DNA of 64,000 nucleotides from Watersipora subatra (Eukaryota), in assembly GCF_963576615.1 (NCBI RefSeq), contig NC_088708.1, positions 42,861,115 through 42,925,114 on the forward strand, in the 5' to 3' direction. The notes under the pieces were generated by a model, which ran no database searches, was not told the origin of the DNA, and saw nothing but the letters and a program-made list of their open reading frames with translations. This document shows positions 3,500-38,393 of this stretch, in pieces (positions within the stretch are counted from its first letter, which is position 1; each line of letters starts with the position of its first letter). Both the position numbers and the translations under genes were made by a program.

Positions 3500-5335
3500 G
3501 AAAAGTTTTGTATCTAGATGTTGCCAAACCATGCAACCATTCAATCTCAAACTGAACAAAGCTAAAAATGAGTACGTTGAAAAACAATCTAATAAACTAG
3601 ACTCAGCAGAGAATTCCAAGTTTTAGAAAACATTCAAGAAAGTTTTTTATCACCAGGAAGATCGCTTATCAGGTGGCTTAAAAGATAACCATGACAGTAT
3701 TCTACACAGTGATGAAAGCAAGGCAAAATATCTCTTTGACCATATATTTGGAGGTGGTCACCTAAATATGAATGCATTTTCCAACAAAAACAAGCCAATG
3801 TATTCTAGCTGAAAATGCAGAGAAATTCGTCTTACTTAATGAACCCATCACAATGGCAGAGATAGAACTTGCTCTTAGAAAGCTGAAACCGTCAAGAAAA
3901 AGTGCAGACTTCAATGGCATTCACTCAAAGATGCTAAAACAATCGAGTCCATTTCTTCTCATAGCTTTACGCTGCTTATTCAATGCTGTTCTCAAGACAC
4001 AAATATGGCCATGGAACAAGTCAAACTTAGTAATATTCCTTAGGAAAACTGGCAAAGCAGATTACACTGATGTAGGATCATACCATCCCATAACCATCAG
4101 CTCCCATGTGGGAAAAACACTGGAAAGGATTCTAGAAAAAAGACTAAGAGATAACATAAAAAATAATATATTATTACCAAACTCACAATTTGGCTTCTGA
4201 AAAAACAGAGGAACATTTGATGTAGCCTACTTTCTTCAACTGATATCAGAAACACAACGCCTTTAAAAGAAGCAACACACAGCAGCCATTTTCTTAGACC
4301 TTCAAAAGGCCTTTGATACTGTATGGCATCAAAGGATGATATCTAGATTAGCTGTCCTTGGGGTCTCTGATACCTTCTTGAGGACGGTTGAATCATTTCT
4401 CGCCCCAAGAAATATTCAACCGAAGGTAAACAACTATATACACACACCACAAAAATGTACAATAAGACTTCCACAAGGCAGTGTTTTGTCTCCATTGCTT
4501 TTCATTATACGTATACATACATGATATGCTACTACAAGTAGAAGGCACTGGTCTGCAATTTGCTGAAGATTGTACCATACTGATGTCAGATCATTCGTCA
4601 TCAGAGCTTCAAGACACATGCAACAAAAATTGCACTATTATGCAAGAATGGATGACAAAATGGAAATTAAAAATTAACTACCGAAAAACAGAATTAGTAG
4701 TTTTCCATGGTCATCTTCAACCCTCAGTGATGGAAAACGAGAACATTAAAATTGTTAGACTCCACAAAAGTACTTGGAATCTGGGTAGATAAGGGCCTAG
4801 AATTTATGAAACAGATTAGGAACAGCGTTAAGTCGCTGAATACAAAAATGAACATGTTAAAACCATTTCTGTATTCAGGAATGAGCTGTCAAACAGCAAA
4901 AAAGGTTCTCACTCATGCAATTATTCCTAAGGCTCTACATGCATGTTCTCTTTGGAACTTGACTGAAAAAATCACACTGCATCTCCACCTCAAACTCCTT
5001 CTTGGAACTCATTTAAATCCATATTTAGAATCATTACACGTTATTATTGGGATACCCCCGATAAATATTCAAATGACAAGGGAAAGGCTACAAATAATGC
5101 GGTGTCTGATTAAATCAGATATGTCACACATCATTACCGCTTCTCCTCACAGCTCACTGATAAAAGCATTTAAAGCTGATATCAGGAAGATAATCTCCAG
5201 AATTGTAGAAGTTGATAATATTGACTCTAAAGAACTCAGTAAAACAAACATTAACGATCTTACAAAATCAAAATGGCTGAGAAGATGGAAGATGCAACTA
5301 ATTATGGTAATTGCTCACTAGGCCTAATTGCAACT
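3500..5335 (+). mobile_element. Non-LTR retrotransposon (LINE) fragment. The reverse-transcriptase region of ORF2 is 5'-truncated and frameshifted.
   Basis: ORFs 3772..4200, 4336..4524, 4481..4792 and 4752..5321 carry RT motifs. These include LLPNSQFGF(RKNRGT), FLDLQKAFDTVWHQ, QGSVLSPLLF and FAEDCTI (the FADD box). They sit in consecutive shifted frames. Confidence 0.7.
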
Positions 5336-5992
5336 CTCCCAGTAGACCATTTATTCAATAACCCAATACCTCTAGAGACAGAAAGGAAAGCTGCAACTAT
5401 TTCAATAGACCATTGGAGCAACCTATAGGGGAGAACGGGGTAGGTTGGCCCTATGGGGCAGGTTGGACTATGTCAATTTTGGAAAATATATGTGTGTTTG
5501 GAGTTTTCTTCCCATATGAAATATAGGTCAATGAAATTACATCACTTCCTGTCAATGGCTGCCTCTCACATGTGCAAGGGTAAGTGAAATAATGTCAAAT
5601 CTATAATTTTTGCTCAAAAAGTAACTTTATGAAATATAACTTGTGGTCAGCATATTCTTGAGTGTGTTAATTCTACTTCTGTCATACTCTTAAGAGATGT
5701 CTAGCATATATTCAACCAAATTCAGATTAAGTTGGGAAGCCAGCAATAATGAAATTTTTGATGGTTGAAATTATGTCCACCAACTTCAGATGGGGCAAGT
5801 TGGCCTTTTGAAAAAGGGGCAGGTTGGCCTGTGGGCCAACCTACCCCATCAAGATTGTGAAATGGAAGTAAAGATTATGGCTTGTTTGAATCAGAATTAT
5901 TCAGTGGAGTACATATCCAAACAGACTCCAGCATAAAATATAGGCATATTTGTTGTAGAAACTTTATACTAGAATTTGACAAGCAATTAATC

Positions 5993-6494
5993 ATGGTTCG
6001 AAACTACAAGCGTAAAACAGAACGAGGGGCGACCAAAGAGGACATCACAGCTGCAATTCGGTTTTGGAATGAAGGTGCCTCACTGGACCAGACAGTAAAA
6101 CATTTAAAATTCCTGCCACAACCCTTAAAAGGCATAGAAAGAAATTGGGTGAGGGCTATACGCACTGTAAAACTGTAAAAATGGTTTTCAGCGATGCAAT
6201 GGAGCTGAACTTAGCTAATCATCTTAAAGAGCTAGACCTTCGATTTTATGGTTTGACACCCGTTAAGTGTCGTGAATTGGCTTATGAGTACGCCAAGAGC
6301 AACAGAGGAGAAGTTACCATGCCTGAGAGTTGGAAAACAAACAAGACCGCTGGTAAAGATTGGCTTGCTGGATTCTTGAAGCGACATAAGCTGTCCATAA
6401 GAACTCCGGAGGCCACCTCACTTGCTAGACAGTCAGGATTCAATCAGCCAGCAGTTAGCTTGTTCTTCAACAAACTTAAAGAAGTGACAGATAG
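5993..6494 (+). pseudogene. pogo transposase 5' exon with the N-terminal psq HTH and CENP-B-type HTH. It is disrupted by an 8-bp tandem duplication, ACTGTAAA twice, at 6164..6179.
   Basis: ORF 5882..6178 contains MVRNYKRKTERGATKEDITAAIRFWNEGASL from the Met at 5993. ORF 6145..6498 reads YGLTPVKCRELAYEYAKSNRGEV...WLAGFLKRHKLSIRTPEATS. Removing one copy of the 8-mer joins the two frames as ...RTVKMVFSDAME. A GTAAAC donor follows at 6495. Confidence 0.6.
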
Positions 6495-6711
6495 GTAAAC
6501 AAATCACACCAAAGTAGAAGGCAATGCACTATTACTAACTGACCAAAAGAGCCCAATTGAATTTTAAGCCTATATAAATTGTACAATGTTTAACCATAGA
6601 TATTAATACAGGCTCTTGTTTCTTACTTTACTAAACCATCAACTCATTCATGTCAGGCCTTTGGCTACTGTAACTATTTTGTTTCTGAATTGCTATGTTG
6701 TATTGTTTTAG

Positions 6712-8218
6712 GACCCAGATATCGCCTCAAAATATATACAATCTTGATGAAACTGGAGTTACCACCGTGCAAAATCCTGAAAGGGTGGTTAGCGTACTGG
6801 GAAAAAAGCAAGTGGGAGCAACTGCTTCTCAAGAGCGTGGGGAGCTCGTGACAATGTGTTGTGCCATAAATGCAATCGGCAATTCTCTGCCGCCATTTTA
6901 CATATTTCCTAGAGTTAATTTTAAACAGCACTTTCTCAATAGAGCTGCTGCTGGCTCAAAGGGAGTAGCGTGCAAAACCGGGTATATGAATAGCGATATT
7001 TTCACAAATGATTGCTTACCATTTTTCGTTAGCCATACAAAGCCCACCAGCAGTGAACCAATTCTTTTAATTCTGGACAATCATAGCTCTCATATATCTA
7101 TCCAGTCAATTGAATTTTGCAAAGAAAACAACGTAATTTTGTTAACTCTCCCACCTCACACCTCTCATAGGCTCCAACCCCTAGATCGCAGTGTATATGG
7201 ACCTTTGAAACGCTACTTGAATGCAGCGATGGACGATTGGCTGCGATGTCATCCGAGTCGCTACATTTCCATTTATGAAATGGCAGAGCTATCAGGCATA
7301 GCATTTACTAAAAGCTTCACAAATTCTAACATTACAGCTGGATTTCGTGCTACCGGTATATACCCCTATAACTTAGATGTATTCGACGACAGTGATTTCT
7401 TTCCCGCAGATATAACTGACCAACCTGACCCCAAGGCATGTCCATATGCTGCACAACAACCAAATCTTGAACGTCAACTTGATCCTGAGCGTCAACCTGA
7501 TCCTGAGTCACAATCTGATGGTAATCCACAACCTTCTACATCTACCCAACAGAGTGTTCCATCAACTAGTAACTGCAGCAATCCAAAGCAACTTGCAGCA
7601 ACACCAGTGACTAAAAGACAACTGCCAGTTCAGCACATAACCCCAGAACAACTCATGCCCTTGCCGAAAGCCTGCAGTCACCAAAGAAAGTTGAACAGGA
7701 AAAAAGTCTCATCAGCAATTCTCACCGACACACCTAAAAAAAATCGAATAGCAGAAAATGCAAAAGCCAGAAGACCAAAACCTCCTGCAAAAAAGCGAAA
7801 AAAATCACCAATGCCTGAATCCACCGATGAAGAAGATGTTGTATCAATTGATTTAACTGATTCAGAATCTGGAGACGACTTTCTAGAATTGGAATATAAT
7901 GACCAAGACGTTGGTGACATAACTCAAGGAGCTCACGTGTTGGTAAAATACCCGGCAGGTAGGAAAACAGTATTTTATGCCGGGTGTGTTCTTGAAGTGA
8001 TGGATGATGATAAGTTTGAAGTGAACTTTGTACACAAAGTCACCAACAGCAAGAATTGTGCGTTTCAATATCCCGACAAGGAAGACCGCGACTTGGTCAG
8101 CAAGGAGGACATTGTTATGAAATTAGGAGATCCGATTTCAACCGGGGGAACAATGAGATCAATTAAAAAGCTCACATTTGACGTTGATTTGAGATATTTC
8201 TATGACAATCTTCGCTAA
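6712..8218 (+). CDS. pogo transposase 3' exon with the DDE_1 catalytic domain, a basic NLS-like KKRKK, an acidic linker and a C-terminal barrel-like extension.
   Basis: The intron runs 6495..6711, from GTAAAC to a pyrimidine tract ending TTTTAG. The split codon AG|G encodes Arg and keeps the frame, giving ...KEVTDR|TQISPQNIYNLDETG. The DDE motif is present as DETG, LLILDNHSSHIS and LDRSVYGP. About 250 extra residues follow, ending in ...AHVLVKYPAGRKTVFYAGCVLEVMDDDKFEVNFVHKV...FQYPDKEDRDLVSKEDIV. Confidence 0.7.
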
Positions 8219-8622
8219 CCACCTTTAGTGCAGTATTAACCAAATCATTACACGTTTTCTGTTATTTTTTCTTTTCTTGATTCCCTGGCTGGGATTAGAT
8301 GATGTGGCAAACATTCTTATTCAGCTGTACTTCAAATAACTGCTTGTATTGCAGTGAATAAATAAATGAATAAACGGTCTTTATTTTTTGTGGTCGAACA
8401 AACTTTCTTAACACATGTTTTGGTACATAATATAAACTAGATAATGAACAGTCCAACCTGCCCCATTGAGAGGTCCAACCTACTCCGTGTGTGGGGTAGG
8501 TTGGACTTCTAATGATATGTTTAAAAAGACTGAATAACTCTTGAAATAACTTTCTCAGAGCTTTTCTAAAGCAGCACAATGTAGTTAAGAGTTAAAAATG
8601 TGGGCATACAAAGAATCATCAG

Positions 8623-8809
8623 TGTTACGTTATTGAATCATTGGCTTTGCCGTTTCCGGTTAGTGCATGCGCACGCAGTTCTGTTTTTATCCTCGAGGAT
8701 GCGTTACACGTTTTTCTAATGCTCTTGTATTGTATTCCTTATTCACATGTACTATTGTTCGTTATTCATAATATACGTTCTACAGCATTAACTACACACA
8801 TATTCAACA
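8623..8809 (+). repeat. gypsy 5' LTR
   Basis: Identical to 13022..13208 except at one position (G versus A at the 7th base). Confidence 0.85.
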
Positions 8810-8985
8810 ATGGCGACGAGGATGGGATTCGTAATTATCTCAATGTCCCCTATCGTTTTACTGTATTAGTTACCTGTATTTTTGTACTAGAACTGTTGCC
8901 TTTTTCTTGCGCAAGACACACGTTGTTGTGCATCTTTTTCTTAACAGAAATTCTCTCATAAAGCTCAACAAGCATTAATTTTGCA

Positions 8986-11900
8986 ATGGCAGCTCAAAAT
9001 TCCATTGGACGCATGGAACCATTTGATGAGTCAATTGAGTCATTCACATGTTATTTAGAGCGTTTTGATTTCTACACGGAAGCTAATAGCATTGATGATA
9101 GCAAAAAAAAGGCAACTTTTCTGAGCCTCATAGGTCCCAAGTTATATAAACTATTACGTGGTCTCACAGCACCAGATAGACCAACAGCTAAGTCATTAGA
9201 AGAATTAACCACGCTGCTAAGTAATCATATCTCACCACCTCCACTCGAAATTGCGGAAACATATCGCTTTCATCAACGAAACCAGCTACCTGGTGAAAGC
9301 ATCCATGAGTATGTTGCACAACTCAAGTTACTTGCTGAGCATTGCAATTTTGAAGGTGCGTACCGTGAACGGGTACTACGTAATAGACTGGTCTGTGGAA
9401 TTTACTGCGAAAATGCTCGCCGCAAACTGTTAACTGTAGCAGACTTAAATCTTTCACGTGCCATAGAGATTGCTCGAGGTATGGAGCAGGCTGGGAAAGA
9501 TGCCGAAGTCATGACACAACGACAGCCAACAGAATCTAAAGTCTGTCACATCTCTAACATGCATTCGCCTACTACCAGTGGCAAACCTTGGCCTTGTCGT
9601 TCCTGCGGGAGCACCCTTCATCCAAGAAAGCAATGCCCACACCTTCAAGCTGAATGTTTTAAATGTGGTCGGAAAGGCCATCTTCAATCTGTTTGTGAAC
9701 AGAAAACTCCAAGTAAAAGACCTCAACTCCAGAAGCCTCATAGACGAGCACAAAACACACACAGTGTAATGTCAGATGCAATTACAGAGGAGCATGAAGA
9801 TATAGCTCATATAAACACACTGTCTAAGGAGCACAGCCACCCACCAATCATGCTAGATACACTCATCAATGGTATCCCAGTGAAAATGGAACTTGATACA
9901 GGTGCAGGAGTGTCCACAATGCCATATCATATCTACAAAAAGATTAAAGGCTCATTGGAACTCCAACCTACATCTACTACTTTGAAACCATACGGCGCAA
10001 CGCAGTCAATTAAGCCGAAAGGAGTCATCTACTCAACTGTGCATTTCAGCAAGCAAGAAAGTAAAGCAAGGATGTTTGTGCTAGATAAATCCGAGGGTGA
10101 GCAGGTCCCATTGTTTGGAAGGGAATGGTTAAACCACTTTAAATTAAACTGGTCAGAGATCAAGGCTAATCGGGTCGAGGCAACGGCACAACTGAAGGAC
10201 ACTCTAGTTGCAAAGTACCCGTCCTTATTCAAGCAAACTTTAGGAGAAATGAAAAAGGTTGAAGCAACGCTCCGTACGCGCCCAAGTGCTATTCCTATTC
10301 GGCAAAAGCACCGAGTTGTACCATTCGCATTGCGGGCAAAAGTAGAACAAGAACTTGAATCTCTCCTAAATGAAAACGTTATCTCTCCAGTAGAACATAG
10401 TGAATGGGCAACACCTGTAGTTCCCGTCATAAAACCCAATGGTTCCATTAGGCTGTGTGGAGACTTTAAAGTTACCCTAAATCCTCAGCTAGTTGTTGAC
10501 TCATATCCTATGCCATCTATAGATGACCTTCAAGAAAAAATGAGTGGCGGAAAGTTATTCTCCAAATTAGATTTGTCAAAGGCCTTTGCTCAGATCAAAC
10601 TAGATGCAGCTTCAAAGCCTTTAGTTACTATCACTACACATAAAGGACTGTTCCAGTACAACCGACTCCCATACGGGGTGGCCTCAGCGCCTGCCATCCA
10701 CCAGAGAGCAATGGATGACATACTGGGTAGCCTACCAAATGTCTTATGTTATCAAGACGACATATTTATTACTGGTCAGAACTATGAATCACATCTATCT
10801 ACTTTGCATAGCGTTTTAGACCGTCTACAGAATTATGGGCTAAAGGTCAATAAAGAAAAGTGCTGCCTCCTACAATCATCAATTATTTATTTAGGACATC
10901 GCATAGATCAACACGGCCTGCACCCTATGGAAAGCAAGGTTAAGGCTATCAAAGAGGCTCCAACACCTACAAATATTGGTGAGCTTCGATCTTTCATAGG
11001 CTTAGTGAACTACTATCAAAAGTTTTTACCAAACTTAGCAACAGTCATGCACCCATTGCATCAACAGTTACGCAAAAATGCTCACTGGAACTGGTCTTCA
11101 CAATGTCAAGAAGCCTTTGTTCAGTTAAAGCAGCTGTTGTCTACAGACTGCGTGTTGACACCATACGATGTTAACTCTCCTCTGATACTGGCCTGTGATG
11201 CCTCAGCATACGGGGTAGGGGCAGTCTTATCGCACAAACTTTCAAATGGTGAAGAAAAGCCCATAGCATTTGCTTCTCGAACATTAAGCCCAAGTGAGCG
11301 AAACTATGCCCAAATCGAACGAGAGGCACTATCAATTATCTTTGGGGTAACAAAATTCCACCTCTACTTGTATGGCCGCTCATTTACCTTGCTCACTGAC
11401 CATAAGCCATTGGTTACAATTCTAGGCCCAAAAACCGGTGTTCCTCCTATTGCTGCGATGAGAATGCAAAGATGGGCCGCTATTCTAACAGCGTATACAT
11501 ACGACATAGAATACAAGTCATCACTCACTCATGCGAATGCTGATGCTATGTCACGGCTTCCGCAGCCATGCAGAAGACTTCATTGTGAACAAACAAGACT
11601 ATTTCACATTGAACAATATGCCCAACTACCCGTGACCTTTGAGACAGTATCCATAAAAACTCAGGAGGACAAAACATTGAGCAATGTCTACAACTCAACC
11701 ATACATGGTTGGCCTCCATACAGTGCCGCAAACATAGATCCATACTTTAGATGTCGACAAGAGCTCTCGACGCTAAAGGGTTGCTTGATGAGAGGCATAC
11801 GCCTTGTTATACCCTCTAGTTTGCGAGCCACAATACTCACCGAACTCCACCAAAGTCACTTGGGGATGGTCAAAATGAAAACAACAGCACGCAATTATGT

Positions 11901-12969
11901 ATGGTGGCCACAAATTGATGAGGACATTGAAGCCATTGCAAGGTCTTGTCCGCAGTGCAATGCGGTTAAACACAATCCTCCATCAGATCCCCACCATTGG
12001 GCCCCTGCTGATAGTCCATGGCAGCGAATACATTTGGATTATGCCGGTCCTCTAGATAATACAATGTTCCTAATTATAGTAGATGCCTATTCCAAATGGC
12101 TGGAAGTTTTTCCCATTCGGACGTCTACTTCAGCAATCACCATAGCAACACTACGAAGAGTCTTTGCTACACATGGGTTGCCCTATACAGTGGTCACTGA
12201 CAATGGACCTCAGTTCACATCAGGGGAGTTCATGCACTTCATGAAGAGCAATGGTATACGACATTTAACAATGGCACCATACCACCCACAAAGTAATGGT
12301 CAAGCCGAACGATTTGTACAGACATTCAAACAAGCTTACAAGGCTTCGACAGAAGCAGTAAACATGAAAGTTGATAAGTTTTTCCTCAAATATCGTACAT
12401 CGATTAGCATGGTAACAGGCAAGACGCCAGCAGAATTACTGATGGGCAGATGCCTGCGAACAAGACTAGATCTTCTGAAGCCATCAATTCAGGCTGCACC
12501 ACTTACAAACTTCTCGCAGAAGCGTCACTTTCAGGAGGGTGATTTAGTGTGGTACAAGACGTTTCAGAGACCAGCCGTTCAGTGGCTGCAAGGGTCAGTC
12601 ATGCATCTTCTGGGAAATTCCATGTATGAGATTTTAGATGCTTCCACCTCAGGTATCGTAAGGCGTCACGTTGATCAGCTACGCAAAAGAGAAACCTCTC
12701 CGTACTTGGCTGACACATCCAATGAAATGAACAGTGAACGCGAGGTGACAAAACCCAATCACTTGCCGATGGGTCAGGAGACAGGTGTCAATATTGAAGC
12801 GGAGACGTGTCCACACGAGCAGCCCTCTTCAGGCACCGTTGACTCGATTCCATGCACCCCCATGGCACAAGAAATACTACAATCACCACAATCAACACCT
12901 ACGCAAACCAGACAATCAGCGCGTGCGAAAACTGTCCCATCATATTTGTCAGATTATGAACTGTCCTAA
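8986..12969 (+). CDS. gypsy gag-pol polyprotein of 1327 aa in a single uninterrupted ORF. It covers gag with two CCHC knuckles, aspartic protease, RT, RNase H and integrase.
   Basis: The CCHC knuckles read CRSCGSTLHPRKQCPH and CFKCGRKGHLQSVC. The protease motif is LDTGAGVS. The RT motif is YQDDIFI. The integrase HHCC finger reads H..H...CPQC. The DDE core includes the segment DYAGP...TDNGPQF...E. A GPY/F-like tail follows. Confidence 0.9.
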   Translation: MAAQNSIGRMEPFDESIESFTCYLERFDFYTEANSIDDSKKKATFLSLIGPKLYKLLRGLTAPDRPTAKSLEELTTLLSNHISPPPLEIAETYRFHQRNQLPGESIHEYVAQLKLLAEHCNFEGAYRERVLRNRLVCGIYCENARRKLLTVADLNLSRAIEIARGMEQAGKDAEVMTQRQPTESKVCHISNMHSPTTSGKPWPCRSCGSTLHPRKQCPHLQAECFKCGRKGHLQSVCEQKTPSKRPQLQKPHRRAQNTHSVMSDAITEEHEDIAHINTLSKEHSHPPIMLDTLINGIPVKMELDTGAGVSTMPYHIYKKIKGSLELQPTSTTLKPYGATQSIKPKGVIYSTVHFSKQESKARMFVLDKSEGEQVPLFGREWLNHFKLNWSEIKANRVEATAQLKDTLVAKYPSLFKQTLGEMKKVEATLRTRPSAIPIRQKHRVVPFALRAKVEQELESLLNENVISPVEHSEWATPVVPVIKPNGSIRLCGDFKVTLNPQLVVDSYPMPSIDDLQEKMSGGKLFSKLDLSKAFAQIKLDAASKPLVTITTHKGLFQYNRLPYGVASAPAIHQRAMDDILGSLPNVLCYQDDIFITGQNYESHLSTLHSVLDRLQNYGLKVNKEKCCLLQSSIIYLGHRIDQHGLHPMESKVKAIKEAPTPTNIGELRSFIGLVNYYQKFLPNLATVMHPLHQQLRKNAHWNWSSQCQEAFVQLKQLLSTDCVLTPYDVNSPLILACDASAYGVGAVLSHKLSNGEEKPIAFASRTLSPSERNYAQIEREALSIIFGVTKFHLYLYGRSFTLLTDHKPLVTILGPKTGVPPIAAMRMQRWAAILTAYTYDIEYKSSLTHANADAMSRLPQPCRRLHCEQTRLFHIEQYAQLPVTFETVSIKTQEDKTLSNVYNSTIHGWPPYSAANIDPYFRCRQELSTLKGCLMRGIRLVIPSSLRATILTELHQSHLGMVKMKTTARNYVWWPQIDEDIEAIARSCPQCNAVKHNPPSDPHHWAPADSPWQRIHLDYAGPLDNTMFLIIVDAYSKWLEVFPIRTSTSAITIATLRRVFATHGLPYTVVTDNGPQFTSGEFMHFMKSNGIRHLTMAPYHPQSNGQAERFVQTFKQAYKASTEAVNMKVDKFFLKYRTSISMVTGKTPAELLMGRCLRTRLDLLKPSIQAAPLTNFSQKRHFQEGDLVWYKTFQRPAVQWLQGSVMHLLGNSMYEILDASTSGIVRRHVDQLRKRETSPYLADTSNEMNSEREVTKPNHLPMGQETGVNIEAETCPHEQPSSGTVDSIPCTPMAQEILQSPQSTPTQTRQSARAKTVPSYLSDYELS

Positions 12970-13021
12970 AAAGGGGATTACAATTAGTGATGATATGTTT
13001 CTTCCCTAGGGGAAGGAGAGA

Positions 13022-13208
13022 TGTTACATTATTGAATCATTGGCTTTGCCGTTTCCGGTTAGTGCATGCGCACGCAGTTCTGTTTTTATCCTCGAGGATG
13101 CGTTACACGTTTTTCTAATGCTCTTGTATTGTATTCCTTATTCACATGTACTATTGTTCGTTATTCATAATATACGTTCTACAGCATTAACTACACACAT
13201 ATTCAACA
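13022..13208 (+). repeat. gypsy 3' LTR
   Basis: Direct repeat of 8623..8809. The six-frame ORFs at 8641 and 13040 are identical 57-aa LTR artefacts. Confidence 0.85.
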
Positions 13209-13581
13209 ATCAGCATCTGATAAAAACACAGAACCAATAAGAAAAATTCAGAAAAGGGGGCCAACCTACCCCGGTCTCCCCTACACCCATACCTGCCAAC
13301 TCTCACGCATTGGGCGTGAGACTCACGCAATCACCCCAAAGAAAAAATGAAAATGCGTGAGAAATGCGTGAGATTTTTGCCCCAATTTCCACAATTTTAT
13401 ATATACTATCATTGATACATCAATTGCCCCAAAACCAAATCTCACGCATTGCCCCCCTCTTAGGTTGGCAGGTCTGCCTACACCGATATGCACATGTTTG
13501 TTGTAGGACGAAACTAGTATACACTACTTATACCAATGCTCAGACTATAGTACTCCTCAACAACAGATAAATCCAAACACT

Positions 13582-14955
13582 ATGAAATGGGACACTGTTG
13601 TTAAATTCATCAACAAAACAGAACAGGTTATAGAACATATTATTGCTCATAACATAAGAGATTATCTCGATCAGAATAACATCCTAAGTGAAACACAGCA
13701 TGGTTTTAGAAAAAAGCACAGCTGTGAATCTCAACTTATACACACCATATCAGACTTGGCAAATTTTAATAATCTTAACACTCAAGTGGATGTACTTGTT
13801 TTGGATTTTAGTAAAGCGTTTGATACAGTTTCGCATGACAAATTGATCCACAAACTTAGAAGTTATGGCCTAAATGCAAACGTAGTGACTTGGATACAGC
13901 ACTGGCTCCTGGACCGCACATTCTGTGTCATAGTTAACGGTAAAACATCTCCACCTACCCAGGTAACATCAGGTGTGCCCCAGGGGTCGGTGCTTGGACC
14001 CTTGCTTTTTCTTTTATATATCAATGACCTTCCAGAGTCTCTGAACTGTCCAAAGACATCCATACGTTTATTTGCGGATGATGCCATACTTTTAAGACCA
14101 ATAGAATGTGCGTCCGACAGCCTTCTGCTACAGGACCAACTGTGCAGAGTGGCTGCATGGGCTGAGTCGTGGCAGTTGAGATTTAATGCTAATAAATGCA
14201 CATCTACATCTGTGGAACCAGTTAGATTTTCACATATATACAACTATTGCGGTACATCTCTTATATCCTCGCAATCCTTTTTATACTTGGGTATACTTGT
14301 TTCTAGCACCCTCAATTTTAATGAACACATAAATCGCATCATACGTAAGGCTAACGGCACTCTTTTTATGCTTATGCGGACCCTTAAGAAAACATCTCCT
14401 AATGTCAAAAGGACAGCATACTATAGTGTGTGTCGTCCACTGCTAGAGTACGCTTCGGAAATCTGGAGTCCACATTTTGATTATAGTATACAAGATTTAG
14501 AATCCATTAACCGAAAAGCTTTTAGGTGGGCCAACAATTTAAGAAAATTTGATAGTATATCATCAGAAATGGTGAAAATGGGATGGCAAACACTTGCAGA
14601 GAGAAGACGCATCAAGGACGAAAGCACACTGCAAAAAATTTTAAGCCAAGACCTAATGGTCGATTTTAATAGATTTGTAATTAAGAACTCATCCTATTTT
14701 ACTCGAGGCTCCAATATCAGACACACAATCAATACAAGTGCAATGAAACACTCTTTTTTTAACCGTGCGATGAAATTTTAACATCTGATTCTCTTATAAC
14801 TAGACCAAGCGATCTTATACTTTTATCCTTCAGACTTAGATAAATAAGTCTATGCTTATTTGTGATCTTATTTTTATGCCTAATGCACCATTTTATTTCT
14901 ACAGGCCTAGCGGCCACTTGAGATATTTTACAGAGATAGATAGATAGATAGAACG
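13582..14955 (+). mobile_element. Second non-LTR retrotransposon (LINE) 3' fragment. It has an RT ORF and a (GATA)n tail.
   Basis: ORF 13582..14781 carries RT motifs LDFSKAFDTVSHD, QGSVLGPLLF and LFADDAILL. A microsatellite (AGAT)5 at about 14934..14953 is typical of CR1/L2-type 3' ends. Confidence 0.7.
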
Positions 14956-18048: not shown

Positions 18049-18426
18049 ATGGCAAGTAAAAGGAAGATAGACAAAGAGGGCAGAGAATTTAATAACGATT
18101 AGAAATTAAGCTATTTTGTGAAACACCACTCTGTAAATCAGGCTGTCTGCGTAATTTGCAACCAAATTATAGCAGTTCTCAAAGAATATAATATTCGACG
18201 GCATTATACTACTCGCCATGCACAACAGTATGACCAGCACAGTGGCCGAGAGAGAGCAGAGAAGTATGAAACACTGTCAAAAAATCTCGCATCACAGCAG
18301 CGCTTGTTCACCCGCTACACTGAAATCAGTGAAAAGGCTACAAAGTGTAGTTTGGTGATAGCTAACAAAATTGGCCAGAGGCAGCTGCCATTTCAACATG
18401 GAGAGTTCGCAAAAGAGGTAAGTTTA
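18049..18426 (+). CDS. hAT transposase exon 1 with an N-terminal BED-like zinc finger. A single in-frame TAG lies at 18100..18102.
   Basis: The ATG at 18049 is in frame with ORF 18118..18549 and gives MASKRKIDKEGREFNND*KLSYFVKHHSVNQAVCVICNQ...RRHYTTRH. The TAG sits where TGG (Trp) would be expected. A GTAAGT donor lies at 18427. Confidence 0.65.
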
Positions 18427-18578
18427 TCTCTATTTCATCAATATGCTGAATATTACCGGTTCTTGTTTGAGTACCATTTATATGTGTATTATATTTGCAT
18501 GCATTTTATGTTTTATTTAAATTTTATCAGCATATTCAACAGCACATGAAAGTATTGTTATTGACTATTGTATTGTAG

Positions 18579-19209
18579 GTACTGACAGAATTTGTGGAAG
18601 AGTTTTGCCCCGACAAGAAAGAAGCACTGGAGAGCATCTCTTTATCAAGACACACAGTAATTAGAAGGATTGAAACATTGAGTAAGGACATTGAGCGCAA
18701 ACTCAAAGAGGTTGCAAGCAATTTTATCTACTTTAGCATTGCGCTTGATGAGAGTACAGATAATTCAGACATAGCACAACTTGCCATCATGGTCAGAGGA
18801 ATTGATGATCAGTTCAGCATCACAGAGGATTTTCTCACAATGAGCAGCCTTCACGGTACCACAACGGGTCAAGACACATTTGACAACCTGCTCAAAGAAC
18901 TTAAAGATTTCAATCTACCACTTGAAAAGTTATCAGGGATATGCACTGATGGTGCGCCGGCAATGACTGGAGAACACACAGGCTTAATTGGCTTGCTGTT
19001 GAAGTCCAGAGTGTGGAATGTCCCTCCTATCGTGTACCACTGCATCATTCACCAGGAAAATTTAGGAGCACAGCACTTTAAGATGGGACATGTCATGGAA
19101 TTGGTTGTATCCACAGTAAACTACATAAGGGCTCGAGCTTTGAGCCACCGCCAGTTCAAAGAGATGCTGAAGGAGATTGAAGCAGAATTTCAAGACGTGA
19201 CATATTATT
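18579..19209 (+). CDS. hAT transposase exon 2, the catalytic core.
   Basis: The acceptor TATTGTAG ends at 18578. Joining exon 1 ...EFAKE to VLTEFVEEF... keeps phase 0. The exon contains FSIALDESTDNSDIAQLAIMVRGIDD...GICTDGAPAMTG. A GTAAAG donor lies at 19210. Confidence 0.65.
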
Positions 19210-19266
19210 GTAAAGTGAGATGACTCAGTAGTGCAAAAACACTTCGTTGGTTTCTCAGTCTTTTAG

Positions 19267-20009
19267 ATCCCATCGATACATTCATGAGAGGCAAAGGACG
19301 TAACCATGAAGAATTCAGAAATGTGGCATGGATAAATGATCTTGCTTTCCTGGCAGACATTACTGAGCATATGGCGGATCTTAAACGCAAACTACAGGGA
19401 AAGCAGCAGCATGTATCATCTCTGTGGAGCCATATAACAGCTTTTCGGTGTAAATTAAATCTGTGGGTCGGTCAACTTCAAAATGGAAACTGCACACATT
19501 TTAAGAGCCTGCTGGAGCGACAACAGAGTGTTGAAAATCATGTCAGTGCAGAGCCATATGCAAAGCTCCTGACTGGCCTTGCTGCTGAATTTGGCAGAAG
19601 GTTTGCTCAATTTGATGGCACTTGCATGCATATCAACATCTTTGAAGACCCATTCTCAGTCGACGCAGAAGAAGCACCTGCTCCTCTACAAATGGAACTG
19701 ATTGATATTCAAGCTGATAAAAGGCTGAGCCAGCATCACAACAGCAATGAACTTGTAGAATTTTACCGTGATTTTCTTCCAAAACAAAGATTTCCAGGCC
19801 TATACAAACATGCTTTACTCATGGGCAGTTTGTTTGGCTCGACTTATCTATGCGAGCAGTTCTTCAGCCGTATGAAGCATACCAAAAATAAATACAGGAC
19901 AACTATCACTGATGAACACTTGACCCAGCAACTAAGACTGGCTTCCTCAGCTACCCAGCCTGACATTGATAGAATAGTCAGAGAAAAGCAATGCCAAGTA
20001 TCACACTGA
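19267..20009 (+). CDS. hAT transposase exon 3 with the C-terminal hAT dimerisation domain.
   Basis: A 57-nt intron runs 19210..19266 and ends TTTTAG. The split codon T|AT encodes Tyr and keeps the frame. The exon reads ...LYKHALLMGSLFGSTYLCEQFFSRMKHTKNKYRTTITDEHL. The stop is at 20007..20009. Confidence 0.65.
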
Positions 20010-32490: not shown

Positions 32491-33084
32491 GTAGGGTCTT
32501 CTCTTTAACTTCTGGAGCTGACTAATGAAATCGTAGTGCTGTCGGCTACAGACCCATGTTTTGGTGTGGGAGTTCATAGTCCTAATGGGACAATATAGAC
32601 ATTTGGGCTGATGTAGTCGCTGCAAACCAGTTTTTATGTTTCTCTAAATACGCTAAATGTGAACTTGAATCACAAATTCAAGAGAGCAAGCATTACATTA
32701 TATATACATTATTATTAGAAGGTAAATATGAGCATTTGAACAGAGTCTCTTATGATGCCCCTAATCTAGTATAGATGTGATTATTTTTCGTAAATTTTTG
32801 GTAAAAAAATTCAAGATAGTTTCATCAAAAGGATATTCTTTACCGAGTCATACAACATGGGAAACAATTTGGCTAGTCAAAACAGTAGATCACCGTTGTT
32901 ATTACCTTGCTTTTAACCGGATACATTTGTGAAATAGTTTGTTGTGGATGTAGTGGCTACAAAGGTGGTACCTATTGCCGCGTCTTAATATATTGTTTAA
33001 TTGTTCACAAGCAAATATAAGACTGCAACTTCCTTTGCAGTGAATTTCTATAATTTTTTATGCTTCTATGTACATGACATTTAG

Positions 33085-33320
33085 GTGCGAGCTATCACTG
33101 GGGAAACATATATGCTCAAATCAGATGAGGAATTGTGGAATAAGGAGTTGTCGCAATCAGTGGAGGAGCTGTTGGCATCGGGAAAAGACCCTTTAGCTGA
33201 CCGGGGGTCTCGTGGCGCTTCTGCTCAAAGCAAGTCTAGAGACAAGACAAAGGTTGTCACATTCCGAGTGCCACACAATGCGGCTGTGCAAATATATGAC
33301 TACAAGGACAAAAGAGCTCG
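33085..33320 (+). CDS. MVP: MVP exon 8
   Basis: [22 protein letters not shown]...DPLADRGS...[23 protein letters not shown](R). Confidence 0.9.
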
Positions 33321-34421
33321 GTAAAAATTTAATCTCTTGCTATCATTTTTTAGTAGTCATACTTTGACATACTTACTTGTCCACTACTACAACATAGCAG
33401 CTTGTACCTGTAATATTCAGCAATGCTTATCTGTAAAAATTCATCTCGTTGAAATACCTCTCTCGTTCATATTATCAGTATCTGACACAGCCATTATATG
33501 AGGACTTATAGCAGTTAGTAAAGAGATCTAATCTGGAATGTCTTCAAATGGATAAACTTGCCTGCCGTACTCTACACGCATATTTAGCGCTTGATTGATT
33601 AATTTCATGATTGTAAAGTGTTTGGCTGACACACGCGTTTGATTTACAACTATTACATCCAAGTTTCTAGATTCAATGCTTGCCCGAAGTCTAGTTATAT
33701 ACTAAGATCTTTTGACATTTGCACCCAGCGTCTGCTGCTCTATACGCATGCTATTTGCGATTTACTAAATGCCACAGACAACAGATGAAGCAGGCAAGAC
33801 CAGGCTGAATCCGTGCCTTGACCAGTTACATGTTTGTGATACTGCAATTTAGCTCAACATATTGTTGTCTCGGCATTTTGGCTTTTTTCTCTCTAAAGCC
33901 GAATTATGTGCAGCAGCAGATGTATTGAAGTTACTGTGCTACTACTGTTACTGTGCTGTTACTCAAGTTGTCATAAGATTTTGTTGTCATTGTGTCTGTC
34001 ATGTGTGCATTTAAAGCCAAGTTGCGTAGTCACTTGGCTTCTATAGGGTGGACTTTGATAGAAATTGGATTCGTACACAGTTCATGTGGTCTGAACATGG
34101 GTGTCTGCATGTATTTCATCTTTCCCATCTTTTAAACTTGCCATCATCAAATATAATGTAAATCCGTACAAATCTATAATTGTGTTATAACATGTGTGTG
34201 TTCTACAATTTTTAGTTTGTTACTCTTGCCAACTACCACAGCAATCTAGATGCATGAAGCGTGTTGTAGCACAAATTGGTATATTACTATTTTAGTGGAA
34301 GTTTGCATGCTTGTTTTTATACTATGCTCAGTATGTTTATATTATTATTATTTCACAGAGTTAAATATATGATATATGAAGTATATTTACTATATTTGCA
34401 TATTTGATTTTGCATTTATAG

Positions 34422-34619
34422 GGTTGTCTTTGGACCTGATCTGGTGATGCTTGGCCCTGATGAGCAGTTTACCAAGCTGTCTCTTTCTGGAGGCAAGCCT
34501 AAGAAACCTAACGCGATCAAGTCTTTGTGTTTGTTGCTCGGCCCGGACTTCTGCACTGACATTGTGATTGTAGAGACTTCTGATCACGCCCGTCTCTCTC
34601 TACAGCTATCTTACAACTG
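34422..34619 (+). CDS. MVP: MVP exon 9
   Basis: [65 protein letters not shown](W). Confidence 0.9.
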
Positions 34620-35652
34620 GTCAGTAGCAAATTCTTCGTGTGAATTGCCATTTATTTCTTGCTCAACTAGCAATACATAATATGAAATAATACAATAGAC
34701 ACTCCAATAATGCAAACAGCTTTTTTCAAGTAAATTTCACTTTATGTGAAGAACTTATGTGAAGTTTTGGCTTTGTATTAGGTAAGAAATTCCATATAAC
34801 TGCCGGTGCAAGTTCTAAAATTCAATTTGGATAGCGAGAGTCCCATAAGTTGGCCTTAAAAATATTGTTTTCTCTGTCAGATCCAAAAAAAATGATATAC
34901 AGGGTATCTTTATCAAATATACTAGTAGGCCTACCCCGCCAGTCCAGTGACGATTATCAGGTGTGACAGTAAAGCATAATTGTAGCTGCGCAATTATTCA
35001 AAAATACCGTAATCATTGATCTTAAACCAAGCAAGAGCGATAAAAAGAGAGAAATTGTCTACACAAACCAGTAATACCACAGTTACTGTAGTCGTTAAAT
35101 TAAAAAGTCTTTCATTTTCGAAAAGCTCAAGGGATAAGTTTGGGAAGATCTTCGAATGAAATAGGCAATTTACATGTATTTCATTATTATATAACATAAA
35201 ATCTCTAAAACGTAAATGTTCTCGGAGCGATGTTGTACACATCGAGGTTATATTTAATCAGTATCTTGCTACATAGTAGATGTAGCTATTGAAGACCTCT
35301 ACTAAAATGAGGCTGACAATATTTGGTACGGTTTAATGTTGCTGATTTTACACGCGTGCCCTTTTAAAGTGCCAGCTTCTTATCTTGCTAATGCAGGACA
35401 ACCAATGATCTTGTCATTAACAGCAAGACAGGAAAATATAAGTTTTGGCCGATATCTTGTGTCGTCACATCTAGGATGTGTGCCGTTCTACTACAGAATG
35501 TAACTAATTATTGTGATAAAAATGCGATGACAGCTTTTACATTGGCAATATTCAATAATATGCAATTCTGACAGAAGACTTCTTGGTAGCGCTTGCTGAC
35601 TGTGTTATAACAAAACAGTGGTGCTGACTTTGCCGTATTATGCTTATTCTAG

Positions 35653-35797
35653 GCACTTTGAGGTGGCGGATAAAGAAGATCCAGTTGCAGCTGCGAAACT
35701 GTTCAGCATTCCTGACTTTGTTGGTGATGCCTGCAAAGCAATTGCATCTCGTGTGAGAGGTGCAGTCGCCGGCGTCCCCTTCGATGAGTTTCACAAG
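35653..35797 (+). CDS. MVP: MVP exon 10
   Basis: [48 protein letters not shown] is almost identical to the vertebrate [24 protein letters not shown] block. Confidence 0.9.
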
Positions 35798-36173
35798 GTG
35801 AGGTTCAGAGCACAAGGCTGAAGTCATGTGCTGCAATAGGTTACCGTCACTGGTCTTGCAATTACAAATGTATGACATAGAAATTTCCCACATTTCTAGA
35901 TTTAAGAGTTATAGCTACATGTTCTAGCATAAAGATTTAGTAATGAACATACCACCAACAATAAGTATTAGTGTATCGAAACTTATTTGTTAGGCCTTCT
36001 CTATATTTCTAGTACGATTATTGTTTGCCTTAAACTATGCACTCATTGCTTTTAAGTCTGTACGATGGTTTTTCCTGGCCTTTTGGTGTGGAAGTGGACA
36101 TGTCTCTAAATGAAAATTTGCAAATGACTTTGAGCTTTTTCAGTGAAATGTAGAAAATGAATCCTTTTGTTAG

Positions 36174-36494
36174 AACTCAGCCAAGATTATCAGAAGTTCT
36201 GTGTTTGGATTTGATGAGAACAGAAAGGTGAAAAGCCGATTTGACTTCGAACAAAACAGTTTGGTCATCACATCAATTGACATCCAGTCAGTGGAGCCTG
36301 TTGACCAGAGAACACGAGAGTCCCTTCAGAAGTCAGTTCAGCTGGCCATCGAGATCACAACCAATTCTCAGGAGGCGGCAGCCAAGCATGAGGCAGAGCG
36401 GCTGGAGCAAGAGGCCAAGGGTAAGCTCGAACGACAGAAGATCAGCGATGAGGCCGAGGCTGAGAAATCAAGGCGTGAGCTTCTTGAGCTCCAG
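36174..36494 (+). CDS. MVP: MVP exon 11
   Basis: [19 protein letters not shown]...[57 protein letters not shown]...ELLELQ. Confidence 0.9.
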
Positions 36495-36734
36495 GTTCGT
36501 GTTGTATGATCTTCAGTCTGGTTGGTTATGGAGCTGTTTTTTGAGCGGTTTGTTTCTTTTGCGCAACAAAGCTAAAATATGATACACAGCATACACGTAT
36601 ACTGAAGTAAATTATTTGTAGTACATTTAGGAAGTTTGTTGATCTGCAATTGATATAGTCTATGTATCAAGAGAAATTCAAGTTAATTTATACCAAAATC
36701 TATTTTGTCACTGAATTTAGATCTGCTTTGACAG

Positions 36735-36869
36735 GCACACAGTGCTGCTGTGGAGAGCTCGGGACAGGCTAAGGCAGAGGCTCAGTCTCGCGCTGAAGCA
36801 GCCATGATTGAAGGAAAAGCCGCTGTTGACCAGGCCAAGCTGAAGGCTGAAGCTGTAAAGATAGATGCG
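36735..36869 (+). CDS. MVP: MVP exon 12
   Basis: [45 protein letters not shown]. Confidence 0.85.
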
Positions 36870-37109
36870 GTATGTCTATGGTTCATTTTGTTGGTTAACC
36901 TGTGAGTAATACAAGTCTAATCGATGGGTGTCAATGTCGGGTTTGTGCATTCATGTTGGCGCAAGGCTTGATGTACTATTTATAAATGGCACGCTGTTGA
37001 TTTTGCAACATGCCTTTCCTTAGATACGTTTATTGATACCCTTTTTTTTCCTTAAATAAAATGTAGTCTTATTTGACCTCATTCCATCAACATATCATCA
37101 TGTTAACAG

Positions 37110-37463
37110 GAATCTGAGTTGGAAAGACTGTCAAATGCCCGAAGCGCCGAGAACAAGTACATCGCTGAGCAGAATGAACTAGAGGTTTCGAAAGCAGAGC
37201 GAATGTCCGAGATTGAGGTGAATAAGTTTAAGATGATGGTCTCCGCAATTGGAGCGGATACCCTCAAGGCCATGGCTAATGCCGGCCCAGAGATGCAGGT
37301 ACGCCTCCTCCAGGGACTTGGCATCAGATCTACTCTCATCACTGATGGATCTTCTCCCATTAATCTTTTTCAAACAGCGCAGGGTCTGATTGCACCGCCT
37401 ATGCCTGCTGCCAAGCGACAGAAAAGGCAAGAATACAGTGAGAGTGAAGACGAGTCAAACTAA
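37110..37463 (+). CDS. MVP: MVP exon 13, the last exon (coiled-coil cap, then stop)
   Basis: [43 protein letters not shown]...[30 protein letters not shown]...SESEDESN*. The 13 exons together total 2586 nt, or 861 codons plus the stop. Confidence 0.9.
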
Positions 37464-37687
37464 GAGCACTGTAAATGGACAGATTTCTATATCATGAACA
37501 GATTTTATTTTTCCTGATTTGTTATATATTCATACATGTAACTCGGCTTCTTTCCTACTTTGTCATTTGCAGTAAAATGTCTACATGATTTGATAATCTA
37601 ATATAATTTCTCATCGTCTACTGTAGCGTATGTTTTTTATGGTTCATAGCAGTGAAATATAATTGCATAGAAACAAACAAGTTACAT

Positions 37688-37771
37688 TTATCCTTTGATA
37701 ACTGGAGGCTTATAGCCTGGCTTGACAGCTTCAGCAAGTTCTTTCGCATACATGTCAAGGCGTTGGGTCAT
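37688..37771 (-). CDS. UPB1: Beta-ureidopropionase, last coding exon (exon 11)
   Basis: Minus-strand translation reads MTQRLDMYAKELAEAVKPGYKPPVIKG*, compared with human [27 protein letters not shown]. Coordinates are accurate to within about 2 bp. Confidence 0.8.
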   Translation of the reverse strand: MTQRLDMYAKELAEAVKPGYKPPVIKG

Positions 37772-37864
37772 CTACAACACACGCATGGGTAACATTTATA
37801 AATGTGTAGAAGTTATGATATGCCGCAGCATTATTTCTCACTATAATGCCAATGCTTAACTTAC

Positions 37865-37951
37865 CCTGAAACCCCACTTGTCCTTGACCTGACGACAAAG
37901 GTTCAGATCAACTTCTGTCACAAGCAGTCCATCGAGTGTACGGCTGAGTCC
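37865..37951 (-). CDS. UPB1: UPB1 exon 10
   Basis: [29 protein letters not shown], compared with human [29 protein letters not shown]. The GTAAGT donor is on the minus strand. Confidence 0.8.
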
Positions 37952-38282
37952 CTTCAGAACATAAATTGTTTTTGAAAGCAGAGCAAGGCTCACAACTAAC
38001 TGATCAGGCCGTGTGACTATATGGGGAGGAAGCATGATTGCGGCTGAAAGATGCTGCAGATGTTTCTATGGAAATTCAAGTATTGGGAATACTAGTGGTA
38101 ATGAGTGCCAGATGGACCTTAGATGTTGGAAAACAAACAAAAGTTGTTGTACTTTGTACTATTAGACTGATGCATGTTTAAGTTTAGCAGTTTGTAGTGA
38201 AAGGCTATATCGTTAGTACGGTTTCACAAATGTCTATTGCCCGGTTGTGGACCCTTGTTTGCACACAACAAAAGTAACTCAC

Positions 38283-38393
38283 AGGCGTCCTTGTTCCATC
38301 AGGGCTGGCTACGTATGTAGATCCATAGAAATGTCCAAAATCATTATGGGCAGGCTTCCCATCACCAGAAGTGAACTCATTCTTAAAGGTCTC
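38283..38393 (-). CDS. UPB1: UPB1 exon 9
   Basis: [37 protein letters not shown], compared with human [37 protein letters not shown]. Confidence 0.85.

Follow-up and report, generated by a model that had tools for sequence, protein, structure and literature searches.

The window, i.e. the whole stretch of 64,000 nucleotides of Watersipora subatra DNA that was analysed, carries at positions 8623-13208 an element of 4586 bp with direct long terminal repeats (LTRs) at its ends, nested within a pogo-like DNA transposon. The element and its flanking duplications comprise the following features.

8618..8622 (+): left copy of the target-site duplication, ATCAG, same as 13209-13213, directly outside the TG...CA ends of the LTRs
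8623..8809 (+): 5' LTR, 187 bp, TGTT...AACA
8811..8831 (+): primer-binding site TGGCGACGAGGATGGGATTCG, starting one base past the 5' LTR
8986..12969 (+): single gag-pol open reading frame (ORF) of 1327 aa, with no frameshift and no internal stop
9595..9696 (+): nucleocapsid region with two CCHC zinc knuckles (aa 204-237), from the alignment; weak zf-CCHC match (E=0.022)
9856..10137 (+): aspartic protease (aa 291-384), active site D304-T-G with D304, T305 and G306 invariant; gag-asp_proteas/Asp_protease_2, both matches under the curated Pfam cut-off
10480..10905 (+): reverse transcriptase (RT; aa 499-640), YQDD box with D591 and D592 invariant; RVT_1 (E=1.5e-28)
11092..11496 (+): RNase H (aa 703-837), D738, E780 and D805 invariant; RT_RNaseH_2 (E=1.7e-34), RT_RNaseH (E=4.3e-33)
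11809..12372 (+): integrase, HHCC zinc domain (aa 942-996) and DD35E core (aa 1026-1129); Integrase_H2C2 (E=1.1e-14), rve (E=1.6e-13)
13008..13021 (+): polypurine tract AGGGGAAGGAGAGA, a 14-nt all-purine run whose last base adjoins the 3' LTR
13022..13208 (+): 3' LTR, 187 bp
13209..13213 (+): right copy of the target-site duplication, ATCAG, same as 8618-8622

Structure of the gypsy element

When aligned with each other, the two LTRs match at 186 of 187 positions and both have TG...CA ends, the sole mismatch being at LTR position 7, where the 5' LTR has a G (TTACGTT, a CpG) and the 3' LTR an A. The single LTR difference and the perfect 5-bp duplication reported by a first-pass annotation of this DNA thus both hold on exact alignment, and the other sequence features it listed, including the primer-binding site and the polypurine tract, were likewise recovered, each at the position it had been given.

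Residue conservation was scored on an alignment of 18 sequences, consisting of the gag-pol product and 17 homologues, and all catalytic residues that are invariant among these homologues are present in the 1327-aa ORF. Both zinc knuckles have the form C-X2-C-X4-H-X4-C (C204..C217 and C224..C237), with C204, C207, C217, C224, C227, H232 and C237 being invariant and H212 nearly invariant. In the integrase, H955, H958, C988, C991, D1018, D1072 and E1108 are invariant, and 35 residues lie between D1072 and E1108. The translation is free of internal stops, as expected from the earlier description of one intact gag-pol frame, and the motifs that had been called intact (two CCHC, DTG, YxDD, HHCC and DDE) all occupy columns that are invariant or nearly so. 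Pfam yielded sub-threshold matches only for the gag N-terminus, and no domain, again with sub-threshold matches only, for the C-terminal 197 aa of the ORF. Since the stop codon is separated from the polypurine tract by only 38 nt, there is no possible place for an env gene.

The primer-binding site is perfectly complementary over 21 nt to the 3' end of a eukaryotic tRNA-Ser(GCT) plus CCA. Of 40 loci matched by a 20-mer of its complement in a scan of metagenome contigs, 34 have it at the 3' end of a tRNA-Ser(GCT) gene, the genes for this comparison being those called by ARAGORN in the metagenome loci, and the same 20-mer had no match in the scanned viral contigs. An 18-nt core of the site is kept in seven relatives (L001-L007), and is thus shared with elements at only 57-58% protein identity. 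From the primer match, the 3' end of the host tRNA-Ser(GCT) is predicted to read ...TTCGAATCCCATCCTCGTCG.

Taken together, direct LTRs ending in TG...CA, a perfect target-site duplication within the 4-6 bp range of Ty3/gypsy elements, a tRNA primer-binding site past the 5' LTR, a polypurine tract ahead of the 3' LTR and a pol region ordered PR-RT-RNaseH-IN whose RT, RNase H and integrase are gypsy-type in Pfam identify the element, as judged from its sequence, as a Ty3/gypsy (Metaviridae) LTR retrotransposon lacking env. That it belongs to a different class of LTR element is so improbable as to be negligible. BEL/Pao elements share its pol domain order and make target-site duplications much like its own, but the Pfam set of RVT_1, RT_RNaseH_2 and Integrase_H2C2 is of the gypsy type, with neither Peptidase_A17/DUF1759 nor RVT_2 being found, and every strong homologue is gypsy-type as well. 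A position of the integrase downstream of the RT excludes Ty1/copia, and the 38 nt noted above are too little space for the env of an endogenous retrovirus. All three readings were therefore rejected on domain content.

The pogo-like transposon at the insertion site

With the gypsy insertion removed, the surrounding pogo-like element (5428-13281) measures 3263 bp and consists of the following parts.

5428..8617 (+): part 1, from the left terminus (TA followed by GGGGAGAACGGGGTAGGTTGGCCC) to the insertion point; HTH_Tnp_Tc5, DDE_1
5993-8218: transposase pieces, within part 1
8473-8506: inner palindrome, within part 1
13214..13281 (+): part 2, the final 68 bp, ending in ...GGGCCAACCTACCCCGGTCTCCCC followed by TA, with the terminal 26 nt being an inverted match to the left terminus (25/26)

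The element has the hallmarks of the pogo/Tigger group of Tc1/mariner transposons, namely a TA duplication, terminal inverted repeats and a DDE_1 transposase (E=2.6e-16) with a CENP-B/Tc5-type helix-turn-helix (HTH_Tnp_Tc5, E=8.5e-5). Its terminus, TA followed by GGGGAGA(A/C)CGGGGTAGGTTGGCCC, stands at 5428 and, inverted, at 13281: the right terminus ...CCGGTCTCCCC, followed by TA, matches the left terminus, TA followed by GGGGAGAACGGGG..., at 25 of 26 positions, and the TA flanks occupy 5426-5427 and 13282-13283. It is unlike the pogo/Tigger group in that each of its ends has a long module, of about 420 bp (left) or about 200 bp (right), delimited by an inner palindrome of the terminal motif, a layout that is kept in at least three distant relatives. 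The best named relative of the transposase is an uncharacterised protein of the bryozoan W. subatra (68% identical), and a genomic-context look-up for the Watersipora pogo protein P0121 returned no record.

The gypsy element lies 68 bp inside the right terminus of this transposon. According to the first-pass annotation, it had instead split a separate pogo-family MITE of roughly 180 bp, whose termini matched the neighbouring pogo element, resulting in a nesting of host DNA, MITE and gypsy. What stands of this description is the shared 12-mer GGGGTAGGTTGG, which is found (with at most one mismatch) eight times in the window, always within 5437-13272, against 0.1 occurrences expected, and which at 8493 (+) and 13261 (-) forms an inverted pair whose members, without the insertion, are 189 bp from each other. 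The pogo left end at 5435-5469, moreover, pairs at 87% with 8450-8488 and could be read as belonging to a complete autonomous element ending near 8488, beside which an independent MITE of about 180-190 bp (8493-13272) would have been hit. However, neither 8493 nor 13272 is the terminus of a transposon. On the right, the terminus lies nine conserved nucleotides further out, at 13281 next to its TA, and pairs at the 25 positions given above with 5428 and not with 8493. Pogo elements are expected to be flanked by a TA duplication; position 8493 lacks both the outer 9 nt and a TA flank, being preceded by GT.

The layout of the right end also speaks against a separate MITE. It was compared with protein relatives of the pogo transposase, as copies of the exact family were absent from the metagenome scan, where the terminus GGGGAGAMCGGGGTAGGTTGG had no match in the scanned contigs. 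The window 12-mer GGGGYAGGTTGG was absent from all fetched loci, the relatives having diverged versions of the motif, and motif-specific searches were therefore used. Three elements from unrelated assemblies (L128, L129 and L130), with transposases 42-48% identical to that in the window, have the same arrangement of motif copies, as seen from their distances to the right end (nt; window / L128 / L129 / L130).

First minus-strand copy: 238 / 252 / 242 / 249
Second minus-strand copy: 216 / 221 / 221 / 217
Plus-strand copy: 198 / 200 / 200 / 200
Terminal minus-strand copy: 21 / 24 / 24 / about 22-24

Two minus-strand copies are thus followed by a gap of about 5-10 nt (the window has 6 nt), a plus-strand copy, a further stretch of about 160-165 bp and the terminal minus-strand copy, and the recurrence of this order at equal distances, inside the right ends of three such distant elements, is not what would be expected of a chance neighbour. 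Because the termini at 5428 and 13281 pair with each other and the layout is conserved in L128, L129 and L130, the supposed MITE is, on this comparative evidence, a built-in right-end module of about 200 bp belonging to one pogo-like element at 5428-13281. An independent MITE is accordingly very unlikely, and the comparison of termini, together with the conserved geometry, led us to reject a pogo element ending at 8488 next to a second element starting at 8493. The nesting is therefore better given as host DNA and LINE debris, then a full-length pogo-like transposon, then gypsy. A further relative (L131, transposase about 41% identical) has a 25-nt inverted repeat, and its motif is too diverged for the layout to be scored. 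End modules of about 200-420 bp with inverted copies of the terminal motif, as in these pogo-like elements, are prone to being miscalled as MITEs, by automated as well as human annotation.

Lineage of the gypsy element

Ty3/gypsy elements of this kind are common in marine invertebrates. In the public protein collection, 483 homologues of the gag-pol product were found at E<=1e-20, and those with names are annotated as "K02A2.6-like" or "Gypsy retrotransposon integrase-like" and come from cnidarians, molluscs, echinoderms and fish. An exact-protein look-up returned no record of the product, and a near-identical protein was also absent from the public collection. With no database relative closer than 58% identity, the element represents, by this measure, an undescribed family of a well-known kind.

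From the annotation names of the homologues and the architecture of the element, we infer that the Mag lineage (C-clade, SURL/Steamer-like, "K02A2.6-like") is its most likely affiliation. The label "K02A2.6-like" has been tied to Mag C-clade/Steamer-like elements (PMC8905726), and two CCHC arrays are typical of the nucleocapsids of Mag and Micropia/Mdg3 elements (PMC2577118). In line with this, the element has the build typical of Mag, i.e., one gag-pol ORF, LTRs that are short (~180-200 bp), a pair of zinc knuckles and neither env nor chromodomain, features which are not exclusive to that lineage. The reference members of that lineage, SURL from sea urchin, Mag from Bombyx mori and Jule from Xiphophorus, likewise lack env and a chromodomain and are gypsy elements widespread in fish and marine invertebrates, with two CCHC arrays typical of the Mag nucleocapsid (PMC2577118; PMC6238403), and a kinship with them is suggested by these shared features.

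Among the closest known systems are Steamer and the Steamer-like elements, for example MchSLE1 of Mytilus chilensis, with 4758 bp, 185-bp LTRs, one gag-pol ORF of 1376 aa, two nucleocapsid zinc fingers, a D(S/T)G protease, a YxDD RT, an HHCC and DD35E integrase and no env (PMC11046912). By that description the overall build is alike, the corresponding values here being 4586 bp, 187 bp and 1327 aa. In contrast, MchSLE1 is reported to have a primer-binding site for tRNA-Asn (PMC11046912), whereas the present element and its closest relatives have a site for tRNA-Ser(GCT). The likeness to Steamer-like elements in general is similarly one of description, with the homologues sharing the "K02A2.6-like" label and identity within the collection reaching at most 58%.

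Age, mobility and insertion history

The first-pass annotation had regarded the element as very young and apparently autonomous. The near-identical LTRs make "young" a fair description, whereas "very" hangs on a single substitution and an uncalibrated mutation rate. Likewise, the intact ORF with all its catalytic motifs makes "potentially autonomous" fair as a statement on coding capacity. It is thus fair to regard the element as apparently recently inserted, structurally complete and potentially autonomous. Autonomy in this sense would also be seen in a copy that is intact yet immobile, being a single, silenced or promoter-dead insertion, and this is a possibility to be taken seriously, though not the one we favour. 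Consistent with it, neither a second gypsy copy nor a solo LTR occurs within the 64-kb window, and no near-identical protein is public, even though a very close relative of the host is represented there by a contig (95-97% identical DNA across the major vault protein gene); at an LTR divergence of about 0.5%, moreover, an intact ORF would be expected even without selection. On the other hand, nothing in the element is broken, with the 21-nt primer-binding site perfect, the polypurine tract intact and all catalytic residues in place, and little can be read from an element's absence in a metagenome assembly that is fragmentary. At the other extreme, horizontal transfer has been reported for Steamer-like elements, and the present copy might be a founding, currently active, horizontally acquired and population-polymorphic member of a Steamer-like (Mag C-clade) family in a non-mollusc marine invertebrate, which we consider unlikely.

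The main value of the locus lies in annotation, as it provides a gypsy family that is undescribed and putatively Mag-type with a clean reference copy of full length, and it has no bearing on any open biological question. The exact coordinates of the LTRs, primer-binding site, polypurine tract and duplication could seed a repeat library for this genome, and if other copies exist, the gypsy element might be usable as a marker of recent transposition.

Overall, it is highly probable that a Mag-type Ty3/gypsy element has recently integrated into the right-end module of a full-length pogo-like transposon. Modelled on the established LTR-retrotransposon cycle, a transcript running from LTR to LTR would be translated into a single Gag-Pol polyprotein and cleaved by the protease; both this transcription and any current activity are what we infer. 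A host tRNA-Ser(GCT) would pair with the 21-nt primer-binding site and prime minus-strand DNA, the plus strand would be primed from the polypurine tract, and the DD35E integrase would insert the cDNA via a 5-bp staggered cut. In the present case, the recent integration would have taken place at ATCAG, within the pogo right-end module and 68 bp from its terminus, leaving the pogo transposase gene unaffected and displacing the pogo right end by 4.6 kb from the remaining element. The uninterrupted target, reconstructed as the empty site, reads ...AAGAATCATCAGCATCTGAT....

The target of the gypsy insertion

The first-pass annotation had placed the gypsy insertion inside a pogo-family MITE, with termini matching those of a neighbouring pogo element and hence a nesting of host DNA, MITE and gypsy. 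The elements concerned are:

5428-13281: pogo-like DNA transposon, in two parts (5428-8622 and 13214-13281)
8623-13208: gypsy LTR retrotransposon, flanked by the target-site duplication ATCAG (8618-8622 and 13209-13213)
8493-13272: supposed MITE, interrupted by the gypsy element

The sequence observation behind this reading is real, since the 12-mer GGGGTAGGTTGG (at most one mismatch) has eight occurrences, all within 5437-13272. However, position 8493 can be dismissed as a transposon terminus: it lacks the outer nine bases, its neighbour is GT instead of TA, and its motif is one half of an inner palindrome, the inverted copy lying at 8475-8486 across a 6-nt spacer. At the other side the terminus extends to 13281: TA followed by GGGGAGAACGGGGTAGGTTGGCCC, as found at 5426-5451, and the inverted 13258-13283 agree in 25 of 26 bases, TA being outermost in both. 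What was taken for the right MITE end therefore pairs with the pogo left end 7.8 kb upstream. The pogo identity of 5428-13281 is supported by its TA duplication, its inverted termini and its HTH_Tnp_Tc5 and DDE_1 domains.

Distantly related pogo-like elements were fetched by means of the transposase at 6695-8218 (identities 42-48%):

L128, 2154-5821: 3668 bp, TA flanks
L129, right end at 3318: contig stops at the right terminus
L130, 293-3762: 3470 bp, TA flanks

Motif distances from the ends of the pogo-like elements (relatives: own motif versions; window, right end: gypsy insertion and one of the two ATCAG copies subtracted)
Motif (strand): window; L128; L129; L130
Left end, 1st (+): 10; 10; n/a; 10
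Left end, 2nd (+): 28; 27; n/a; 27
Left end, 3rd (+): 365; 368; n/a; 369
Left end, 4th (+): 389; 392; n/a; 392
Left end, 5th (-): 409; 409; n/a; about 407-412
Right end, 1st (-): 238; 252; 242; 249
Right end, 2nd (-): 216; 221; 221; 217
Right end, (+): 198; 200; 200; 200
Right end, terminal (-): 21; 24; 24; about 22-24

In this group, a 12-16-nt motif stands twice in tandem at each terminus. It recurs as an inner palindrome, about 390-410 bp in from the left end and about 200-220 bp in from the right, and these distances are kept despite the low identity of the transposases. Each end module resembles a MITE by itself. A MITE that is a neighbour by chance would not recur at fixed distances in three diverged lineages, and an independent MITE as the gypsy target was rejected because the longer terminus pairs with the 5428 end and the layout recurs in all three relatives. 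The stretch of about 200 bp is thus best read as a built-in right-end module of a single pogo-like transposon, 3263 bp long before the gypsy element inserted 68 bp from its right end, and the MITE level of the nesting gives way to this full-length transposon.

The pogo match to the bryozoan Watersipora subatra, at 68%, is the sole taxonomic pointer for the host. The transposase pieces at 5993-8218 align with its 624-aa protein in three segments:

5993-6175: aa 1-64
6100-6495: aa 37-168, different frame
6710-8065: aa 168-624

The gap of 215 bp resembles an intron, and the frame change near 6100-6175 reflects a small intron or else a frameshift, so that the copy is not certainly intact.

Structure and age of the gypsy element

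8623-8809: 5' LTR, 187 nt
8811-8831: primer-binding site, TGGCGACGAGGATGGGATTCG, 1 base past the 5' LTR
8986-12969: gag-pol ORF, 1327 codons uninterrupted by stops, the only ORF of the internal region
13008-13021: polypurine tract, 14-nt all-purine run, its last base adjoining the 3' LTR
13022-13208: 3' LTR, 187 nt

The LTRs, delimited as direct repeats by a repeat finder and by direct alignment, start with TGTT, end with AACA and agree in 186 of their 187 nt, and ATCAG occupies the five bases immediately outside each of them, as the first-pass annotation had described for both features and for the polypurine tract. The sole mismatch, at position 7, is a G in the 5' copy (within the CpG of TTACGTT) and an A in the 3' copy; no kind of site is more mutable than a CpG. 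With K of about 0.005 (one difference in 187 nt), T = K/2r and a rate assumed to lie between 1e-9 and 1e-8 substitutions per site and year, the insertion would be about 0.3 to 3 million years old. Poisson uncertainty on a single event is wide, and the one change is at a CpG. "Young" is a fair label; the "very young" originally proposed depends on that one substitution and on the assumed rate.

The primer-binding site was likewise borne out. The 20-mer TTCGAATCCCATCCTCGTCG, overlapping its complement, matched more than 120 loci when scanned against public metagenome contigs, and in 34 of 40 loci submitted to ARAGORN a tRNA-Ser(GCT) gene had its 3' end coinciding with the match; no tRNA was called at the match in the other six (L012, L013, L016, L023, L024 and L043), several of which resemble tRNA-Ser pseudogenes or tRNA-derived repeats. 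From 8811 onwards, 21 nt of the window pair without mismatch with the 3' end of tRNA-Ser(GCT) plus CCA, and the core TGGCGACGAGGATGGGAT is kept just past the LTR in the closest relatives fetched (contigs L001-L007, polyproteins 57-58% identical), which argues for a functional site.

The ORF translates without internal stop, and its polyprotein contains:

aa 291-384: aspartic-protease-like region (Pfam matches below the curated cut-off)
aa 499-640: RVT_1
aa 703-837: RT_RNaseH/RT_RNaseH_2
aa 942-996: Integrase_H2C2
aa 1026-1129: rve

Order and set of these Pfam domains are those of the Ty3/gypsy type; Ty1/copia and BEL/Pao were rejected, as RVT_2 and Peptidase_A17, respectively, are missing among the Pfam matches. 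The polyprotein was aligned with 17 homologues, whose sources are cnidarians, molluscs, echinoderms, fish, a frog, a sponge and further assemblies. All catalytic residues are present in this copy and fall on invariant columns: the CCHC knuckles C204/C207/H212/C217 (H212 nearly invariant) and C224/C227/H232/C237, the protease D304-T305-G306, D591-D592 of the YQDD box, the RNase H residues D738, E780 and D805, and H955/H958/C988/C991 and D1018/D1072/E1108 of the integrase. Gag gave sub-threshold Pfam matches only, as is usual. The last 197 residues yielded no Pfam domain, so that a chromodomain is absent, and the 38 nt between stop codon and polypurine tract leave no room for env. With ORF, motifs, primer site and polypurine tract, the element appears to be an ordinary, recently inserted and structurally autonomous one; an intact ORF is, however, expected at such LTR divergence even without selection and is no proof of activity.

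Lineage of the gypsy element

Of 483 polyprotein homologues at E<=1e-20, the closest (P0001, from a JGI marine metagenome) is 58% identical and the closest named one, from Nematostella, 49%; the named homologues are nearly all "uncharacterized protein K02A2.6-like" or "Gypsy retrotransposon integrase-like". The former label is tied to Steamer-like elements and the Mag C-clade (PMC8905726), Mag being described as the gypsy lineage most widespread in marine invertebrates (PMC6238403, PMC8220671). Nucleocapsids of Mag and Micropia/Mdg3 typically have two CCHC arrays (PMC2577118). Nearly the same build is seen in the Steamer-like MchSLE1 (4758 bp, 185-bp LTRs, a single ORF, two zinc fingers; PMC11046912). 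The element is therefore assigned with confidence to Ty3/gypsy, with the Mag lineage as the best inference and its C-clade as the probable position. Since nothing public exceeds 58% identity, it is a new family of a well-known kind.

Neighbouring elements and host sequences

The pogo-like element lies in a pile of transposable elements, and the window further contains host sequences and satellites:

3772-5321 (+): non-LTR, LINE-type RT fragment upstream of pogo, broken by frameshifts
13288-13476: genuine small MITE, 189 bp
13582-14781 (+): non-LTR, LINE-type RT fragment downstream of pogo, 399-aa ORF (RVT_1, E=1.2e-30)
18118-20009: remnant of a hAT transposase (DUF4371, hAT dimerisation domain)
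32826-38764 (+): major vault protein gene (host exons)
43014-44353: satellite, 19-bp unit x70, 94% matches
48534-49402: satellite, 26-bp unit x33, 94% matches
49922-49998: tRNA-Ile(AAT) gene, just past the 26-bp array
52925-56678 (-): degraded Ty1/copia element, gag_pre-integrs, RVT_2 and an RNase H-like ORF

The small MITE has 13-nt inverted ends (CATACCTGCCAAC / CAGACCTGCCAAC, 12/13 match), internal TCTCACGCATT repeats and a flanking 8-bp duplication, CCTACACC (whole feature 13280-13484), and may be hAT- or P-like; the final 2 nt of pogo and its TA form part of the left CCTACACC copy, so that this MITE inserted after pogo. The downstream LINE ORF begins inside the RT domain and is thus 5'-truncated. 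No further copies or solo LTRs of the gypsy element were found in the 64-kb window.

The vault stretch is 95-97% identical in DNA, introns included, to an ENA metagenome contig (L132, ERZ6864376), with 99% protein identity in the last exon, so that public metagenomes include DNA from a very close relative of the source organism; that no close gypsy protein copy is on record in this assembly is uninformative, since it is fragmentary. The 19-bp satellite is open in all three forward frames and gives rise to spurious ORFs of 400-500 aa.
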